Positions 42,001 to 48,000 of a DNA stretch of 64,000 nt are shown piece by piece. Numbering within the stretch: the stretch's first letter is position 1; every line of letters starts with the position of its first letter. The position numbers are program-made. This DNA comes from Candidatus Krumholzibacteriota bacterium (GTDB taxonomy: Bacteria; Krumholzibacteriota; Krumholzibacteriia; LZORAL124-64-63), in contig JBDLKA010000004.1 of assembly GCA_039714075.1 (NCBI GenBank), positions 25,782 through 89,781 of the forward strand, given 5' to 3'.

Positions 42001-45000
42001 CACCGGATTTCCCGCCAGCACCAGAAAAACGACGGCAAGAAAAATAAATGGCACCTGGCGCATGGGGTCCCCCAGGAGAAGAATGAATGATGTCCAAAAG
42101 GGGTTGCGGCCGAATGATAATTCGGCCGCATTCGGAATATCCCCCCCAGACACCATAGATTGGTCAGGGGTATTCCGCTACCTGACGGGGATTGCAGCGC
42201 TCAGCGGGTTATCAGCCCCAGCCCGATGTGGACGCCGAAAATGGTTCCGCCGTATTCGTCGATCACCAGGCCGGGTTTGTGGGTAAGGTCCAACCCCACG
42301 TCCAGCACCATTCCGCGGCCCAGCGGGACCAGGCTGCCCAGCCGGGCCAGAAGCGCGCCCTTGTTTGCAGTGAATTGATTGAGTTGAAGACCCGGCACTT
42401 CGGTCTTCGCCTTGTGGCGCAGGAGACCAACGCCAAACTCCGCGTAGGGGATGTGGCCCAGCGCCGCGAACGGTCGAGTGGGCAATCCCACCAGCAGCAG
42501 GAACTCGTCGATGCCCAGGTCGGCGGTCGCGTCGACCTCGTTGAAGCCCTCGTCAAGAACCTTGAAGCTGACGCTCCCCCCGCTCTGGCGGATGTAAGAC
42601 AGTGTGATCCAGTTATTGTCGTCGATTCTCAACCTTGCGGTCGCCTGAAGACCGGGCGACGACTCGAATCCATTGAACCAGTCACCTTCGTAGTGGGCGT
42701 AGGTGCCGCCCAGCGTCAGGGCGAAATCGAACAACGACGGGGCGCCCAGACGATTTTCGGGATCGGGTTCCGCCAATGATCCAGGTTGTGGCGCAGGGCT
42801 CTGGCGATACGCCGACGATCCATCACCTTCCGGGCGAGCCGCCGCGATTTCGGAGGTCAGATCCGCGCCGTCGGCAGCGTACACGGCTACGACTTCTTCA
42901 GGCGGAAAGTCGCGATGACGCCCGTCGCTCAGCGTGATCCGCACGAGCGACCCGCCGGGAAGCCAGCGCAGGGAGACATCCGACCAGGTCCAGCCCTCGG
43001 CCGTCGTGACCTGAACTCCTTTCCACGTCGTCCCGTCGGGTAGCTCGTTCACCTGAGGGTCTCCGCCGACTTCCTGAGCAGAAGCCGTGCCGGCGGCCCA
43101 GAGACAGGCCAGCATGATCACAACTCCGATTTGTCGCGGTATCATCATACGGTTATCCACCTCGGTGTTCGCCGTTACCAGCTCACCCAACCGACCCCGG
43201 CATGAAACGCAATGAAGGTGCCGCCGGGCCCATCTTCCAAGAACGAGGGCTTCAGGCCGACGCGCATCTGCAGGTCCAGCACCGAATTTTCGCGCATGGG
43301 CACCAGGACTCCGAGCTGGGCCACGATGCCGAGATTGCCGCCGGAGTGACTCTCGGAATCGAATCCCGGCGCCTGCGCCGTCGTCTTTACCCGGATGGCG
43401 GTTAGGCCCAACTCGCCCGTCATGAACGGGCGCCGGTCGGATCGCGATCCCAGGCGTCGTCCCAACACCAGGCAATACTCCATGAAGCGACGCGAGAATT
43501 CGGCCGTCACCAACGGGCCCGGGCCTCCGGTGTCGATGTGGAAGTCATGGCCGCCTGCAGCCTGATTACGGTACGCCAGGCCGAGCCATGATTTGCCGCT
43601 GATGCCAATACGAATCGTCCCCATCAGACTGAGTCCCGGGTGCAGGCTCGAGAAGGCATCACCCCCAAGAGCGCCCCAACCGGCCGAGGCCGTCCAGGCG
43701 CTGCCGAATACCTTGGCACGACCACCCTGTGCCAGCCCACGCTGCTCGGAGCCAACGATGCCGATCTCGTTGTGAACCGGCGTCGCAGGCGCCGGTTCCT
43801 CGGGGGCGCCGGCGGGTCTGGCGGCCATGACCTCGGCCCGCAGATCGCGGTATTCCGAACCAACGATTCGCATCAGCCGGTCCGGATGCACGTCCATCCA
43901 GCCGCCGTCCGACCGCAGCAGGTGCAGCCGTGAGCCATCGGCAACCCAACGCACTGTCACGTCGGTGATGACCCGGTCGTCTTCCAGCACGACGAATGAC
44001 GGCGTCCACGACGGACCGGCAATCGTATCGCTCGGCGCCGCGACTTCCTGGGCGTACGCTACGCCGCCGGTCACCAGATGAAGAAGGAATGCGAGGGTGG
44101 AAACGAACCGGATATTGTCATTCACGAAAAAATTCCCATTAGTCGGATGTTCATCGATGTTACAAGTCAACAGGCCACGGCACAATTGTGAGCGGTCGCC
44201 GGATTCCAAACCGGGCACCTGGAACAGGTGGGTTCAACCTGCTGCTACCTTTAGATCAGCATATCATAGGGATTCGGAGTATTTAAGATCAATTTGCAGG
44301 GTGGAAATGGTATTCCAGCTAAGAGGGAACGGATGAACCGGAGGCAACCATGTCCGATTCGCACCTAACCGCGGGCCCCAAATCGTTCAGCCGCAGATGA
44401 CAGAAGATGTGTTGCCCGTCGGCATCCACGATGCGCAGTTCATCATCCTGCGTGGTATCGGTCAGGACCCGGTCGAAGGTCGGTCCATACCACCGCCGAA
44501 CCTCGTCGACGGGGATTTCGTGCGCGATGAACTTCCCGATGCCCTTCGCGGCCATGCGCGAAATCAAGTCCGGATCGTCCAGCGTATCGAGTGAGGTGAG
44601 GACAAGGATGGGTCCGGATCCCGTGAAGACTATTGCCGCCTTCATGGCGCCCTCCTTTCATGGGAACGGACGGTCAAGGCCGTACCGAGAGAGGTAGTCT
44701 CAAGATAAACAGGGCGGGCATGGATCGCCGCCGAGCTACAAGGATGCGCACCCCTTCGAACCGGTTGGAGTATGCATTGACCCGGTGGCCGGCTTGCGGT
44801 TAAATCAGTTCTGCCTATGATTTCCGCAAGGAGGAAAATGATCACCCTTCTCTTCCTCCGACGCTTCCCCCATATCGCTGTCAATCTTGCGGGCGGTCCT
44901 GTTCGGCTCGGGGTTTTGTAATAACAACTGATCAGAAGTGAAGGATTGATGGCAGGTTACCCACGGCATTGGAATTTTGACGAGATCTATGATTCGGCGG

Positions 45001-48000
45001 ACCGCGGCTGCGGCGATTTCATCATCGACCTGCGTGAAGTGATGACGGATCTGGAACCGGGAGCGACGCTTATGGTGGCCAGCCGCGACGCCGGCGCTCC
45101 GGTGGAAATCCCGGCCTGGTGCCGCCTGACCGGTCACAAACTGATCGCGGCCGAACCGCCTTTCTACCTGTTGTGCAAGCGCGATACCTGAACCTGAAGG
45201 AAGGATACCGATCATGGCCAATACATTCTGCGTGACGATTACCGAGAGCAAAACCAACGGTGACAAGGCCACCGTGGGTTTCGTGGTGGCCAACGCGGCC
45301 CTGGGCAGCGACAAGGACACCCTGGTTTTTCTGAGCGCCGACGGCGTGTGGTCCGCGGTCAAGGGCGAAGTCGACAAGATCGTCGAGGGCGAACCTTTCG
45401 CTCCGCTCAAGGAGCTGGTCGAGAAGTTCACGAACGGCGGCGGCAGGATCCTGGTCTGCTCCCCTTGTATGAAAAAGCGAGGCATCACCGAGGACATGCT
45501 GATCGAAGGTGCGGCTCCAGCGGGCGGGGCCGCCCTGGTGGAGTGGCTGTCCAACGGATCGCCCTGCGTGGGGTACTAGAAATGGCGGGACTTGACGATC
45601 TGGTTCCGGATCATGTTTTCGACGGCGGTGACCTGGACTGCGGGTCGGGCCTGGTACTGCTGATCCGGGAGCACATGCTCAAGGTACCGCCGGACGGTGT
45701 CCTGGAGATGCGTAGCGTCGAATCCACCGTGGCCGACGACCTGCCGCCCTGGTGCCGCATGGTGGGACACGAGTTTCTGGGGTCGCTTCCCGGGGAATCG
45801 GCCGCCCAGAAACGGTTCTTCGTGCGGAAGGGAGCCGGCCAGGTGGCGCAGGAAGAAGCCAAAGCCCTGGAAGAGGACAAGGACCGCGCCCGACAATACC
45901 AATGGCGCCTGCGGGCACGGGCGTCAGGTCATCTGAAGACCACGGTCTACTGTCGCAACTTCCAGTGGGATCTGGGGCAGCCCGCCAGTTTCGAGGAGAA
46001 GGACGCACATCCTTCGGCGGTGGAGGCCGTGCTGGGGGCCCTTGCCGGCGACCTGGTGACGGGGTTTTCCTCGGCTGCGGCCGCCTCCGGTCTGACGGTG
46101 GACGATGTGGAACTGACGGCCTGTGGAAGGTTGCACGATGTCATGGCCCACCTAGGTCTGAGCGAGGGCGATCCATCGTTTGCGGCCATCGAGGTGAAGC
46201 TGTTTGCCTCGACATTCGACGATGAAGAACGTGTGCGCACGGTCTGGGAAAAGACGGTCCGGCGTTCACCCCTGGCGGCAACCTTGGCCAAGGCCACGGA
46301 GTTGGTGGCGAAGATCGCCATCGTGTGAGGAGAATCAATGTTCGACGTGACTCAGGTAGGTAGCTGGCCTCGCTCAAGAGACCTGCTGCGCGCCCTGCGG
46401 GACAAGCGGTTGGGGCGTATGTCCCGGGACGAGTTCGACAAGGTGGCCGACGAGGAAGTGCGCCGCTGCGTGGCCCACCAGGTGGAAGCCGGGGTGGACC
46501 TGGTTGTCGACGGCGAGCAACGGCGCGATAACTTCTACTCCTTCGTCGCCGACAAACTCGACGGCACCCGCCTGATGTCCCTGGCCGAGATGCTCGATAC
46601 CGTGGACGACAAGGCCGCCTTCGAGGAAATGCTTTCGACCCTGGATGTGCCGGCTTCGGCCATCCGCAATCCCACCTGCACGGGCCGGATCTTCCGCCGC
46701 GAACCGCTAGCTGTAGAAGAACTCAAGTTCGTGCAGCAAATTACGAACAAGCCGGTGAAAGTCACCCTGCCAGGGCCCTATCTCCTGACCCGCTCCATGT
46801 GGGTGGGTGCGTTTTCCAGGGCCGGTTACGACGACAAGGCCGAACTTGGGGACGACGTGGTGAAGATCCTGCGCGAGGAACTCGGGGAGCTGCGCGACGA
46901 GGGCGCCGCCTTCGTGCAGTTCGACGAGCCGGTCCTGACCGAGATCGTCATGAGCGAGGACAACGACCGCCGCACCTTCATGTGAGCCACCCTGGCCACC
47001 CGCCGTGATGCGGGTGCCGAGCTTGAATACGCGGCCGAGCTGATCAACCGGATCACCGACGGAATCGAAGGCGTCCGCACCGGTGTTCACGTCTGCCGCG
47101 GCAACTGGAGCCGACAGGAAGACGTGTTGCTGACAGGTGACTATCACGCGTTACTGCCCGCATTCGACGCCATGAAGATCGACCAGTTCGTGCTGGAATA
47201 CGCCACGCCCCGGGCCGGCGAGCTGGCCATTGTCGGCGAGGCCTTGAACGACCGGGAGCTTGGTCTGGGCTGCGTGAATCCCCGCACGGATGATGCCGAG
47301 GATTCCGCCGACATCGTGGCGCGCGCCGAAGAAGCCCTGCGGTACTACCGGCCCGACCAGATCTTCCTGAACCCCGACTGCGGTTTCGGTTGCTTCGCCA
47401 ACCGTTGCGTCAACGAAGAAGAGCACGCGGTGGCGAAATTGAAATCCATGGTCGGTGCTGCGCGAAAATTGAGGGAGCGGCATGGATAGGGTAGTGGGAA
47501 GGCCAAGTCAGGTCCAAAGGTGATCCACGGCCTTCACCAGGCGTTCGGGTCCATCGCCGTCGGGTGAGACGATCAGGTAATTGACGATCCCGATGTTGAG
47601 TGATGTGAGCAACTTGGCCAGGCCTTCGATGTCCACCGCGGGCGCGAGATCCCCCGCCTCCCGGGCGGCCCTCAGGTTGGCGAGATAGCGGCCCTCGGTA
47701 CCCTCGACCATGCTGGTCACCTTGGCGAAGGCGTCGCCGGGAACCACGAACTTTTCGCGGATGAGATTGACGGCGAAGCAGCCGTGGGTGGTGCCGAACT
47801 CGAGGAGCGCCTGGTAGGCATCCCGTATGTTCTGCAAACCCAGCGGCTTGCGGTCGTAGATGGCCGAAAATGACGCCAGCTCCTCCATATAGGCCGCCAG
47901 GGCCGCCATGAACAGCCCTTCCTTGCCCCCGAATTCCTTGTAGAGGCTGAACCGGTTGATCCCGGTGACCTCTACAAGCTCCTTCAGGTGGGTGCCTTCG

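Follow-up and report, generated by a model that had tools for sequence, protein, structure and literature searches.

Organization of the locus

The window analyzed here is a 64,000-nt stretch of DNA (contig JBDLKA010000004.1, 25,782-89,781, forward strand), and all coordinates below are positions within it. Two open reading frames on its + strand share the same frame (46338-46985, 215 aa, and the GTG-started 47124-47489, 121 aa), with an in-frame TGA at 46983-46985 between them. Read through this codon, number 216, they constitute a single gene (46338..47489, 383 codons and a TAG stop) whose 383-aa product carries the motif RTFM-U216-ATLA. The Pfam Meth_synt_2 domain spans residues 4-376 of the read-through protein (E 1.8e-33), and the halves taken separately match only profile positions 3-189 and 222-323, bearing out the claim of an earlier note on this DNA that one Meth_synt_2 gene crosses the TGA and shows its full domain only when read through.

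Three genes for putative carrier proteins precede this gene on the same strand. The first (44949..45191, about 80 aa) is TusA-like (Pfam TusA 30.4 bits, cut-off 28.6) and starts at an ATG (44949) following a GAAGGA motif; its C22, in DxxCG, and C59, in PAWCR, are conserved in 100% of 55 orthologues and the window's own copy. The second (45214..45579, 121 aa) is DsrE-like (Pfam DsrE 57.9 bits) and maintains 61-88% identity across phyla, with both Cys of C82-x-P-C85 present in 100%, and C6 in 98%, of 61 orthologues and the window's own copy. The third (45582..46328, 248 aa) begins with an ATG 2 nt past the DsrE stop and encodes a TusA-OsmC fusion, in which the OsmC part was identified by Pfam (30.3 bits, cut-off 27.5) and the TusA-like stretch, with invariant DCGSG and PPWCR, by tblastn. 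The OsmC part of the window's copy lacks two Cys present in most orthologues, and no TGA was found at the Cys columns of 61 DsrE-like and 63 OsmC-like orthologues. The carrier names are weak assignments from domain matches, those for TusA and OsmC lying just above the cut-off, and none of the NCBIfam models matched the carriers at its cut-off.

The 70 loci encoding a selenocysteine (Sec) form among the best 80 loci of the genome collection include a TusA-domain gene in 67 cases and a DsrE gene in 62; the upstream flank is shorter than 450 nt in four of the eight without DsrE. No fifth module gene is conserved, with any other family common to at most 14 of these 70 loci, and neither a cysteine desulfurase, a rhodanese nor another sulfur source is conserved in their neighborhoods. 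A natural TusA::MetE-like fusion also exists. The MetE-like gene is the last of a TusA/DsrE/TusA-OsmC/MetE-like operon, as the earlier note had proposed, but the carriers are not universal, since two sister-family loci lack them within 1.5 kb upstream. In L091, one of the Sec forms, and in the close relatives with Cys, the neighbors are OsmC, an acyl-CoA dehydrogenase resembling Rv1679 and a binding protein resembling Rv1680, with neither TusA nor DsrE. By its domain names the module may be a sulfur relay; such a relay would not be obligatory for the enzyme, because L091 and the close Cys forms occur without TusA or DsrE neighbors.

Probable recoding of UGA-216

Within the phylum, a match to the MetE-like protein was found in 22 of 208 genomes, a number of matches identical to that reported earlier for a phylum then counted as 201 genomes. 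The column of codon 216 holds TGA in 20 of these 22 and TGT or TGC in the two most distant (56-58% identical), in agreement with the earlier alignment, and an extra TGA once flagged in one of the Cys forms is simply that gene's ordinary stop. The same alternation extends to the best 80 loci of the genome collection, where 70 have TGA and the remaining 10 TGT or TGC. The Sec-form loci carry labels from 13 phyla, and the Sec form is therefore no speciality of Krumholzibacteriota. Uninterrupted database homologues have Cys in the residue-216 column in 104 of 105 cases and a gap in the other.

A candidate bacterial SECIS hairpin, ACCCGC-CGUGAU-GCGGGU (46998..47015, + strand), follows the UGA, with a 6-bp stem and the 6-nt apical loop CGUGAU, of which positions 2-3 are G then U/G. 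The distance from the UGA is 12 nt to the stem and 18 nt to the loop, the free energy of the element alone is -9.5 kcal/mol, and a predicted lower stem lengthens it to about 46984-47024. The candidate agrees with each of the four constraints that PMC13188914 quotes from the bacterial SECIS model. The hairpin is found in the 20 Sec forms of the phylum and is lost from both Cys forms, as had been claimed, although the spacer is 12 nt and not the 14 nt given previously. Across 83 distinct sequences the stem is paired in 96.4% of cells, compared to 30-49% with a slid partner. Covariation amounts to two compensatory pairs and five G-U pairs, and is thin because the hairpin hardly varies: only two cells change on both sides, and the observed score was reached by 2 of 500 shuffles. 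The departures from the consensus hairpin come from three Bacteroidota sequences: in one (L087) a compensatory pair preserves the stem, and the other two (L085 and L096) have unpaired cells.

Among 109 conserved four-fold codons, third-position entropy is lowest in the four codons of the stem (0, 0.17, 0.25 and 0.80), the median being 1.53. Six Cys forms nested among the Sec forms encode the same peptide with other codons and have lost the stem, and the synonymous constraint on the hairpin is confined to TGA forms.

The genome encodes a tRNA-Sec (68.5 bits, anticodon TCA) together with SelA, SelB and SelD, the latter itself containing a TGA, so the machinery listed in the earlier note is indeed present. 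Every one of the 20 phylum genomes with the TGA form has SelA, as do 5 of 5 Sec-form genomes sampled from other phyla; since 200 of the 208 genomes of the phylum have it, co-occurrence is uninformative within the phylum.

The automatic gene calls split the gene, and the GTG-started frame at 47124 could be read as a gene of its own, as would be expected if the TGA marked a pseudogene, a split gene encoding two polypeptides or a read-through with an ordinary amino acid. This reading is extremely improbable in light of the conservation. The TGA is kept in 87 distinct Sec-form genes that contain no other in-frame stop, and codon-position entropies before it (0.58/0.42/1.37) resemble those after it (0.63/0.47/1.42). 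The 46 codons from the TGA to the GTG, which include those for H251 and C253, are constrained at the protein level, and the synonymous constraint on the hairpin in TGA forms only likewise argues against it. Moreover, TGA has not been reassigned, because orthologues end normally on TGA. Taken together, the UGA/Cys column, the synonymous constraint on the hairpin, selection on the protein sequence both before and after the UGA, and the Sec machinery uphold the earlier proposal of a Sec-containing MetE-like protein, and we conclude that the window gene is very probably a genuine selenoprotein with selenocysteine at UGA-216.

Predicted fold and proposed function

The AlphaFold2 model of the protein is a MetE-like barrel, as described before, with a pLDDT of 88.6 here against the 83.7 given in the earlier note; its best structural matches are Thermotoga maritima MetE and Shewanella 3RPD (TMq 0.73-0.75), with values for MetE of up to TMq 0.74 at E 2e-21. 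By homology to MetE, we take the zinc ligands to be H251 and C253 of the HxC motif (H251-V-C253, CAC GTC TGC in frame at 47088..47096, + strand), E287 in LEYATPRAG (47196..47198, +) and C348 of NPDCG (C348 to C352, 47379..47393, +). These four residues, along with S9, E60 and D196, do not vary among 105 homologues, consistent with the earlier statement on the MetE zinc motifs. The additional Cys at position 352 is invariant in the Sec-bearing clade alone: it is present in 88 of 88 Sec forms having the residue (one gap) and in all six nested Cys forms, and its column holds Thr in all six outgroup loci.

Sec216 lies in a family-specific insert of about 13 residues (DRRTFMUATLATRRD, roughly residues 210-224; 46965..47009, +), delimited by profile alignment and pLDDT. 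The profile alignment to Neurospora crassa MetE (4ZTX) leaves RTFMCAALAARKD unaligned, and that to 3RPD skips query residues 206-236. AlphaFold2 leaves the Sec loop disordered, with pLDDT below 50 at residues 216-221; the insert comes after the FDEP strand, at the barrel's catalytic face, and is predicted to be mobile.

The genome carries a full MetH (1620 bits), so the MetE-like gene is not a housekeeping methionine synthase; this, with its presence in only 22 of the 208 phylum genomes, indicates an accessory function. The gene most plausibly encodes a single-barrel, zinc-dependent selenoprotein of the MetE fold, with a hairpin-aided UGA-216 and an accessory role, and probably forms a unit with the three carriers.

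A tentative mechanism can be proposed, for which we infer what the substrate is, which way transfer runs and that Sec comes into contact with zinc. The zinc site would bind and activate a homocysteine-like amino-acid thiol, since the homocysteine-holding residues of MetE are kept. The Sec arm would swing back and forth from the carriers to the zinc site. On the carrier side, Sec would gain or release sulfane sulfur in Se-S form, or be reduced, and at the zinc site, beside the clade-specific Cys352, sulfur or electrons would move to or from the bound substrate.

The invariant Cys pairs in all three carriers and the restriction of C352 to the Sec-using clade would also suit a redox enzyme in which Sec216 and Cys352, acting as a resolving pair, would be joined as a selenenylsulfide in the course of turnover and for which the carriers would serve as thiol-disulfide reductants rather than persulfide carriers. 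OsmC is by its Pfam name a peroxidase-type fold, and the majority of the prokaryotic selenoproteins in the catalogue resemble thiol oxidoreductases (PMC13188914, section 7). We consider a redox role unlikely, however, given that the module conserves neither a thioredoxin-fold protein nor a flavoprotein or other source of electrons, that both usual Cys are missing from the window's OsmC domain, and that nothing in the analysis places C352 beside residue 216. In addition, the TusA and DsrE families are known sulfur carriers.

It is quite improbable that the module instead handles selenium, with the carriers and the Sec/Cys arm moving selenide or perselenide, for instance in salvage from seleno-amino acids for SelD. 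Among the best 80 loci, two, both from Bacteroidota, have selA, selB and selD immediately upstream of the module, and a selD fragment adjoins a third. Three of 80 is a small share, and such adjacency is expected anyway because sel genes often adjoin any selenoprotein gene. The Rv1680-like protein of the sister operon weakly resembles TIGR04553, a putative selenate-binding family (E about 1e-19, below cut-off), selenoprotein members are known in the DsrE-like and OsmC-like families (PMC13188914), and enzymes of the MetE/UroD superfamily are proposed, in PMC10418091, for methyl-selenide use. Against selenium handling, Cys-form members occur in two archaeal genomes in which neither SelA nor SelD scores above cut-off.

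A folate-independent core methionine synthase resembling MesA-MesD, with the Cys/Sec arm as a gate or methyl relay that the neighbors supply or protect, would agree with the single Meth_synt_2 barrel, a length in the core-synthase range (at most 386 aa; PMC7857596), the invariant zinc- and homocysteine-binding columns and a top NCBIfam match to the archaeal-type methionine synthase NF003317 (186 bits). This role is very doubtful: every methionine synthase model scores far under its cut-off (e.g., 186 vs 406), the genome already has its full MetH and the gene is rare in the phylum, the conserved neighborhood lacks a corrinoid protein, MesX/DUF1852 and any methyl-donor gene, and a search for SAM, cobalamin and T-box leaders in the window and in 11 loci found none.

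Comparison with known systems

The C-terminal catalytic barrel of MetE (T. maritima 1XDJ/3BQ6, N. crassa 4ZTX) shares its fold with the window protein (TMq 0.74-0.75, E about 1e-21), and the HxC, E, NPDCG, GS(W)P, DGE and DEP columns of MetE are likewise invariant in the window family; we take the last three to be the columns that hold homocysteine in MetE. In contrast to MetE, the window protein shares only about 20% identity, has no N-terminal folate barrel, and is encoded with thiol carriers in a genome that already has MetH; MetE, in turn, has no counterpart of the insert bearing the invariant Cys/Sec. Shewanella 3RPD, the top sequence match among solved structures (E 5.7e-33), Listeria 1YPX and MesA-MesD, the latter compared by their description in PMC7857596, are one-barrel proteins of similar length. 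The alignment to 3RPD breaks across the Sec insert and, unlike the Mes systems so described, the window module has no MesX/DUF1852 or corrinoid partner.

The Rv1679/Rv1680/Rv1681 set (NCBIfam NF049984, NF049985 and NF049973) is related through the Rv1679-like and Rv1680-like genes that precede the Cys-form relatives and L091, and through a weak match of the window's TusA to the N-terminal end of the radical SAM family Rv1681, although the matches to these families fall below the curated cut-offs (383-406 vs 600; 215-250 vs 400). No function is recorded for the families, and a literature search found no paper naming two of the three.

TusA/DsrE relays, such as Tus in tRNA thiolation and Dsr in sulfur oxidation, share Pfam domains and invariant Cys with the module, the loci of which conserve no DsrC/DsrAB, TusBCDE/MnmA, rhodanese or desulfurase partner. 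The usual TusA motif is CPxP, whereas the module's TusA has DCG. We know of no MetE-like enzyme acting as acceptor in such relays; here it would be the acceptor.

Neither the MetE-like Sec family nor PF01717 appears in the 2026 catalogue of 119 prokaryotic selenoprotein families (PMC13188914 Table 1), consistent with the earlier statement that no Sec-containing MetE member had been listed. The window gene therefore points to a selenoprotein family outside current catalogues, combining a zinc enzyme that resembles the catalytic half of MetE with three cysteine-carrier genes in many phyla. The catalogued selenoproteins of sulfur trafficking comprise rhodanese-like forms 1-5, DsrE-like (UxxC), OsmC-like (UxxT) and YeeE/YedE proteins (PMC13188914 Table 1). 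Like the window protein, they have Sec in place of Cys at a presumed sulfur or thiol site, pairs of Sec and Cys homologues, and a SECIS within the coding region; in contrast, Sec resides here in a MetE-like enzyme, and it is Cys that the module's DsrE-like and OsmC-like proteins carry.

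A MetE-like gene with a conserved in-frame UGA

The MetE-like gene (window 46338-47489, +) is split by translation table 11 into ORFs of 215 aa and 121 aa in one frame, separated by an in-frame TGA at 46983-46985 (+). Reading through this TGA yields 383 residues, including the motif RTFM-U216-ATLA, and the Pfam domain Meth_synt_2 (PF01717) then spans residues 4-376 (E 1.8e-33; 116.7 bits vs a gathering score of 21), with the separate ORF pieces matching only profile positions 3-189 and 222-323. The claim of an earlier note on this DNA, that a single MetE-like protein is encoded across the in-frame TGA at these coordinates, is borne out by these matches.

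Relatives of the gene are present in 22 of 208 genomes of the phylum, and 20 of these 22 carry TGA at the codon-216 column. The two most distant relatives (56-58% identical) carry TGT or TGC there. The contrast between Sec forms (TGA) and Cys forms (TGT or TGC) drawn in the earlier note holds, with 20 Sec forms and Cys in the two most distant relatives; the TGA flagged in one Cys form is that gene's normal terminator. When a collection with one genome for each prokaryotic species was scanned, at least 575 relatives were obtained; among the best 80 of these loci, column 216 is TGA in 70 and TGC or TGT in 10. The 70 TGA loci bear 13 phylum names as submitters' labels, eight of the loci being unlabelled: Thermodesulfobacteriota (19), Planctomycetota (17) and Acidobacteriota (6), followed by Pseudomonadota, Verrucomicrobiota, Bacteroidota, Eiseniibacteriota, Krumholzibacteriota, Calditrichota, Gemmatimonadota, Armatimonadota, Fibrobacterota and Myxococcota. 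Phylum labels of metagenome-assembled genomes can be wrong, and several rows labelled Planctomycetota nest within the Krumholzibacteriota group in our tree.

Uninterrupted homologues in a large protein database reach 70% identity among the best 120. In an alignment of 105 sequences, composed of the protein of the window and 104 of these 120 homologues, column 216 is Cys in 104 and a gap in one, a gene model. A JGI gene model (P0011) is without exactly the six residues RTFMCA and retains the TLATRRDAG that is typical of Sec forms; it may represent a gene call that jumped over the TGA. Position 216 hence combines the two features by which a selenoprotein is recognized in comparative data, a UGA kept in orthologues and a Cys aligned with it in homologues.

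The division into two ORFs could also reflect a split gene, a pseudogene or read-through with an ordinary residue. No further in-frame stop was found in 87 distinct Sec-form genes, and their entropies by codon position are alike on the two sides of the TGA (0.58/0.42/1.37 upstream, 0.63/0.47/1.42 downstream), which indicates the same purifying selection on the protein before and after it. Furthermore, the ordinary stop of the orthologues is also TGA, and the codon has therefore not been reassigned. We consider decoding of UGA-216 as Sec very probable, and these three alternatives, even taken jointly, most improbable.

A candidate bSECIS hairpin and the selenocysteine machinery

A candidate SECIS hairpin, ACCCGC-CGUGAU-GCGGGU, lies at 46998-47015 (+), 12 nt 3' of the UGA, and is prolonged by a lower stem in the predicted fold. 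Its energy is -9.5 kcal/mol, compared to a shuffle mean of -4.0 (z = -2.9). The published bSECIS model specifies an apical loop of 3-9 nt on an upper stem of 4-16 bp, a G as the first or second loop nucleotide, with G or U usually next, a UGA-to-loop distance of 16-37 nt and an MFE of -7.5 kcal/mol or lower (PMC13188914). With a 6-nt loop on a 6-bp stem, G then U/G at loop positions 2-3, a spacing of 18 nt and the energy above, the hairpin lies within all four constraints. No Rfam family matches at the hairpin.

Across 90 Sec-form sequences (83 distinct), pairing is present in 96.4% of hairpin cells, compared to 30-49% when the partner is slid. The stem changes observed among Sec forms amount to five G-U and two compensatory pairs; because the stem hardly varies, this covariation is thin and we gave it no weight. 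Constraint at synonymous sites is the stronger test of the hairpin. Among 109 conserved four-fold codons, the four lowest third-position entropies belong to exactly the four stem codons (T221 ACC, 0; A225 GCG, 0.17; R222 CGC, 0.25; G226 GGT, 0.80), against a median of 1.53 for the 109 and values of 1.53-1.65 for the four codons immediately 5' of the stem. In the six Cys forms that nest among the Sec forms, T221 and R222 are encoded by different codons and positions 225-226 hold different residues, and the stem can form in none of these six. The hairpins of two Bacteroidota loci (L087 and L096) deviate from the consensus, with pairing kept in L087 by a compensatory change from C-G to A-U.

The genome encodes a tRNA-Sec (68.5 bits, anticodon TCA), SelA, a 640-codon frame with a SelB winged-helix domain, and SelD, so that the complete set named in the earlier note as present was recovered from the same genome, as expected of a selenoprotein-encoding organism. 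SelD is a selenoprotein in many Sec users, and here its gene, which lies outside the window (locus L114, G000:C31:20863-21777), contains one in-frame TGA, from which we conclude that SelD is itself a selenoprotein. SelA occurs in each of the phylum's 20 TGA-form genomes, but this co-occurrence is uninformative because SelA is found in 200 of the 208 phylum genomes. It was also found in five of five sampled Sec-form genomes from other phyla. In the two Bacteroidota loci with deviating hairpins, the module's TusA gene is directly preceded by selA, selB and selD (L087:2-4350 and L096:3-4437).

The carrier-protein module and the wider family

The MetE-like gene closes a module of four tightly packed genes on the forward strand, preceded by a TusA-like gene (44949-45191), a DsrE-like gene (45214-45579) and a TusA-OsmC fusion gene (45582-46328), the ATG of which lies 2 nt past the DsrE stop. 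A scan of 44500-47700 revealed no promoter-like site, and the terminator-like sites that it returned are uninformative, all lying within genes or on the opposite strand. An Rfam search of window 43000-49500 and of 11 related loci detected no riboswitch or leader, its sole match being a tRNA. Among sequencing runs matched to the stretch, no RNA run is listed; the best-matching DNA run may come from the source sample, and the remaining DNA runs contain small shares of it. Downstream of the module (47508-51017) lie genes for a divergent TetR-family regulator (-), an AurF-like di-iron oxygenase and an acyl-CoA synthetase-like protein, none of them conserved beside the module in other loci.

The earlier note had stated that the carrier genes precede the MetE-like gene in relatives. 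This is the case in 15 of 17 Sec loci of the phylum's own family, which carry all three upstream genes, the other two being cut by contig ends, but the statement does not extend to two sister-family loci, where no carrier gene lies within 1.5 kb upstream. In a longer locus encoding a near-identical protein, the carriers lie 3.7-4.1 kb upstream, behind dehydrogenase and peptidase genes. Of the collection's 70 Sec loci, 67 have a TusA-domain gene with the MetE-like gene and 62 have the DsrE gene; four of the eight loci without DsrE have an upstream flank of less than 450 nt, and in seven of the 70 the small TusA gene lies downstream, not upstream. Once module genes and antisense ORFs are set aside, the most widely shared gene cluster occurs in only 14 of the 70 loci, indicating that the module is self-contained, and neither a regulator nor a source of sulfur or electrons is conserved in it across these loci.

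The TusA-like protein (TusA, 30.4 bits vs a cut-off of 28.6) has invariant C22 (DxxCG) and C59 (PAWCR), and the DsrE-like protein (57.9 bits vs 22.7) has an invariant C6 and the invariant pair C82-x-P-C85. With a domain match and conserved Cys in each, both are putative persulfide carriers on sequence grounds. The 248-aa TusA-OsmC fusion has invariant C20 and C58, and its OsmC domain scores 30.3 bits (cut-off 27.5). OsmC/Ohr thiol peroxidases have two catalytic Cys in the OsmC domain. In the OsmC domain encoded in the window, Ala and Leu occupy the two columns that are Cys in 51 and 44 of 64 aligned sequences, and since both usual Cys are replaced, a thiol-peroxidase role is unlikely for this protein. 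Two other loci have a single in-frame stop in a carrier gene, at a Gly/Pro column of the L042 DsrE gene and at a Thr/Ser column of the L093 TusA-OsmC gene. Given these columns, we rejected Sec at both, and the stops are probably assembly errors or decay.

Only three fused, longer relatives of the enzyme were found, one of them without a further domain. In P0123 (702 aa), a single ENA metagenome sequence, a TusA-like domain with the motifs DGGDLDCG...PAWCR, identical to those of the window's TusA, is joined directly to a Cys-form MetE-like domain (RTFMCGAL; enzyme part 40% identical); its last ~200 residues resemble run-on translation. From this one metagenomic sequence, the fusion offers a Rosetta-stone hint of a TusA-enzyme partnership. 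P0124 (736 aa) has a weak Hint_2 (intein-like) match at 283-358, within the barrel. The partnership of the MetE-like enzyme with Cys-bearing TusA-like, DsrE-like and OsmC-like proteins looks obligate.

We inferred a FastTree phylogeny from 123 rows, comprising all distinct loci and 24 database Cys forms hand-picked from the matches. One clade (support 100, branch length 0.36) takes in all 87 Sec rows together with 16 Cys rows, the latter located in a subclade whose rows are from Verrucomicrobiota and Planctomycetota. This tree requires at least six Sec/Cys changes, three of them forced by well-supported branches, with an uncertain root and a sampling skewed to best matches. A single early gain of Sec followed by reversions fits this pattern.

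A different conserved gene set, composed of OsmC, acyl-CoA-dehydrogenase-like and periplasmic-binding-protein-like genes, accompanies Cys forms, both those of the outgroup and the nested ones of Verrucomicrobiota, as well as a single Sec form (L091). It lies ~3 kb upstream of the MetE-like gene (loci L054, L056, L070, L091, L100, L110 and L113) and ranges from Verrucomicrobiota to Nitrososphaerota archaea. In NCBIfam, its dehydrogenase-like and binding-protein-like genes match the Rv1679 and Rv1680 families best, with scores under the cut-off, and the TusA of the window shows a weak match to the N-terminal end of the Rv1681 radical SAM family; a full-text search found no literature on an Rv1679/Rv1680/Rv1681 gene set. 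In two archaeal genomes bearing Cys forms, neither SelA nor SelD was found above cut-off, which suggests that the chemistry of the family was not selenium-specific at its origin. A module whose cargo is selenium rather than sulfur would make use of the same carriers, and we regard that reading as distinctly unlikely.

The predicted zinc barrel, its Sec loop and known systems

The AlphaFold2 model of the MetE-like protein, built from the 105 sequences, has a pLDDT of 88.6 and a pTM of 0.91, and its top Foldseek matches are the T. maritima, fungal and Shewanella MetE structures (TMq 0.73-0.75). The zinc-ligand columns HxC, E and C (H251, C253, E287 and C348) are invariant in the 105 sequences, in agreement with the earlier note and as characteristic of PF01717, and the protein is predicted to bind metal. 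S9 (GSWP), E60 (DGE) and D196 (FDEP) are likewise invariant and align with MetE motifs; these residues together presumably hold zinc and homocysteine. In the model, pLDDT falls below 50 at residues 216-221 (mean 49 over the 211-220 block), placing Sec just after the helix that comes next to the FDEP strand in sequence, on a loop that AlphaFold2 is thus unable to position. The profile alignment to N. crassa MetE leaves over the insert RTFMCAALAARKD, and alignments to 3RPD also break there. Cys352, four residues past the zinc ligand C348, is invariant in the Sec clade and Thr in the outgroup; Cys357 is present in most of the Sec clade and Cys209 in 56 of 89 Sec forms.

Taken together, these data show a conserved gene, very probably that of a selenoprotein, with a recoding signal, a MetE-type barrel predicted to bind zinc and a family-specific Sec/Cys loop predicted to be mobile. 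For its chemistry, we tentatively favor a mechanism in which the zinc site would bind a homocysteine-like amino-acid thiol, the Sec arm would move between the carriers and the zinc site near C352, and its cargo would be sulfane sulfur, held as a Se-S species; this possibility falls somewhat short of an even chance. A rival reading, in which Sec216 and Cys352 would act solely as a redox pair that the carriers reduce, is one we consider unlikely.

A core methionine synthase is a further alternative. The gene is the only Meth_synt_2 gene of the genome, which also has a full-length MetH (1620 bits, contig C59). Every NCBIfam methionine synthase model falls far below its own cut-off, and upstream of the operon neither this genome nor any of 11 further loci has a SAM, cobalamin or T-box leader, and for these reasons we did not file the protein as a methionine synthase, a role we judge improbable. 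No model of NCBIfam release 20 claims it. Elsewhere in the genome, two adjacent frames (G000:C24:4197-5722) match separate parts of MetH, the homocysteine-binding and cobalamin-binding regions, and may be a split methyltransferase and corrinoid pair.

In the boldest reading, the four genes could constitute a self-contained machine that has spread horizontally and carries out a reaction so far unknown in the MetE fold. A Sec "swinging arm" would take sulfane sulfur from a private TusA/DsrE relay and deliver it to, or remove it from, a zinc-bound homocysteine-like substrate, in a persulfide-dependent C-S or S-S chemistry without PLP, folate or corrinoid. This would be a new catalytic use of Sec, by a selenoprotein family present in more than a dozen phyla and cut in two by annotation pipelines. 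We put this full proposal forward as doubtful, if possible.

Table 1 of a 2026 review lists 119 families and subfamilies of prokaryotic selenoproteins, and neither PF01717 nor a MetE name is among them (PMC13188914), in line with the absence from selenoprotein lists asserted in the earlier note. Term searches gave no methionine synthase or MetE entry in the text of the GOS survey, the deep-Sep paper, the BSepDB main text or the Haft and Gwadz preprint. Likewise, a full-text literature search, which covered Haft and Tolstoy 2025 through the review table and BSepDB through its main text, returned no description of a Sec-containing MetE-like protein. The data support the interpretation that this is a Sec-containing MetE-like protein in a carrier operon, on the strength of the UGA/Cys column, the hairpin, the Sec machinery and the module. 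We read the family as a branch of the MetE fold that bears Sec, occurs widely and is missing from the catalogues, with a private carrier module. If so, a selenoprotein family under 13 phylum labels has been missed by catalogues, the 2026 table included, and wherever gene calls divide the gene into two fragments, as here, selenoproteome sizes and MetE counts would be off. The tight association with TusA-like, DsrE-like and OsmC-like proteins would then point to sulfur (or selenium) amino-acid chemistry of a kind not studied so far and directly testable, its parts being small and soluble, with natural Cys versions for easy expression.

Among known systems, MetE proper (TIGR01371/NF003556) has two barrels and an N-terminal folate-binding domain, whereas the protein described here is a single barrel of 383 aa, and its scores (TIGR01371, 100.5 vs 929.95; NF003556, 104.4 vs 541) led us to reject that assignment. 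The core methionine synthases MesA-MesD are set apart by their partners, as no corrinoid protein or MesX/DUF1852 is common to the 70 Sec loci, and MetH is available to the genome. The catalogued rhodanese-like and DsrE-like selenoproteins are precedents for Sec at sulfur-carrying sites (PMC13188914). The protein would provide the first Sec within the MetE/UroD barrel superfamily, borne on a mobile, family-specific loop above the zinc site and not in a CxxU redox motif.
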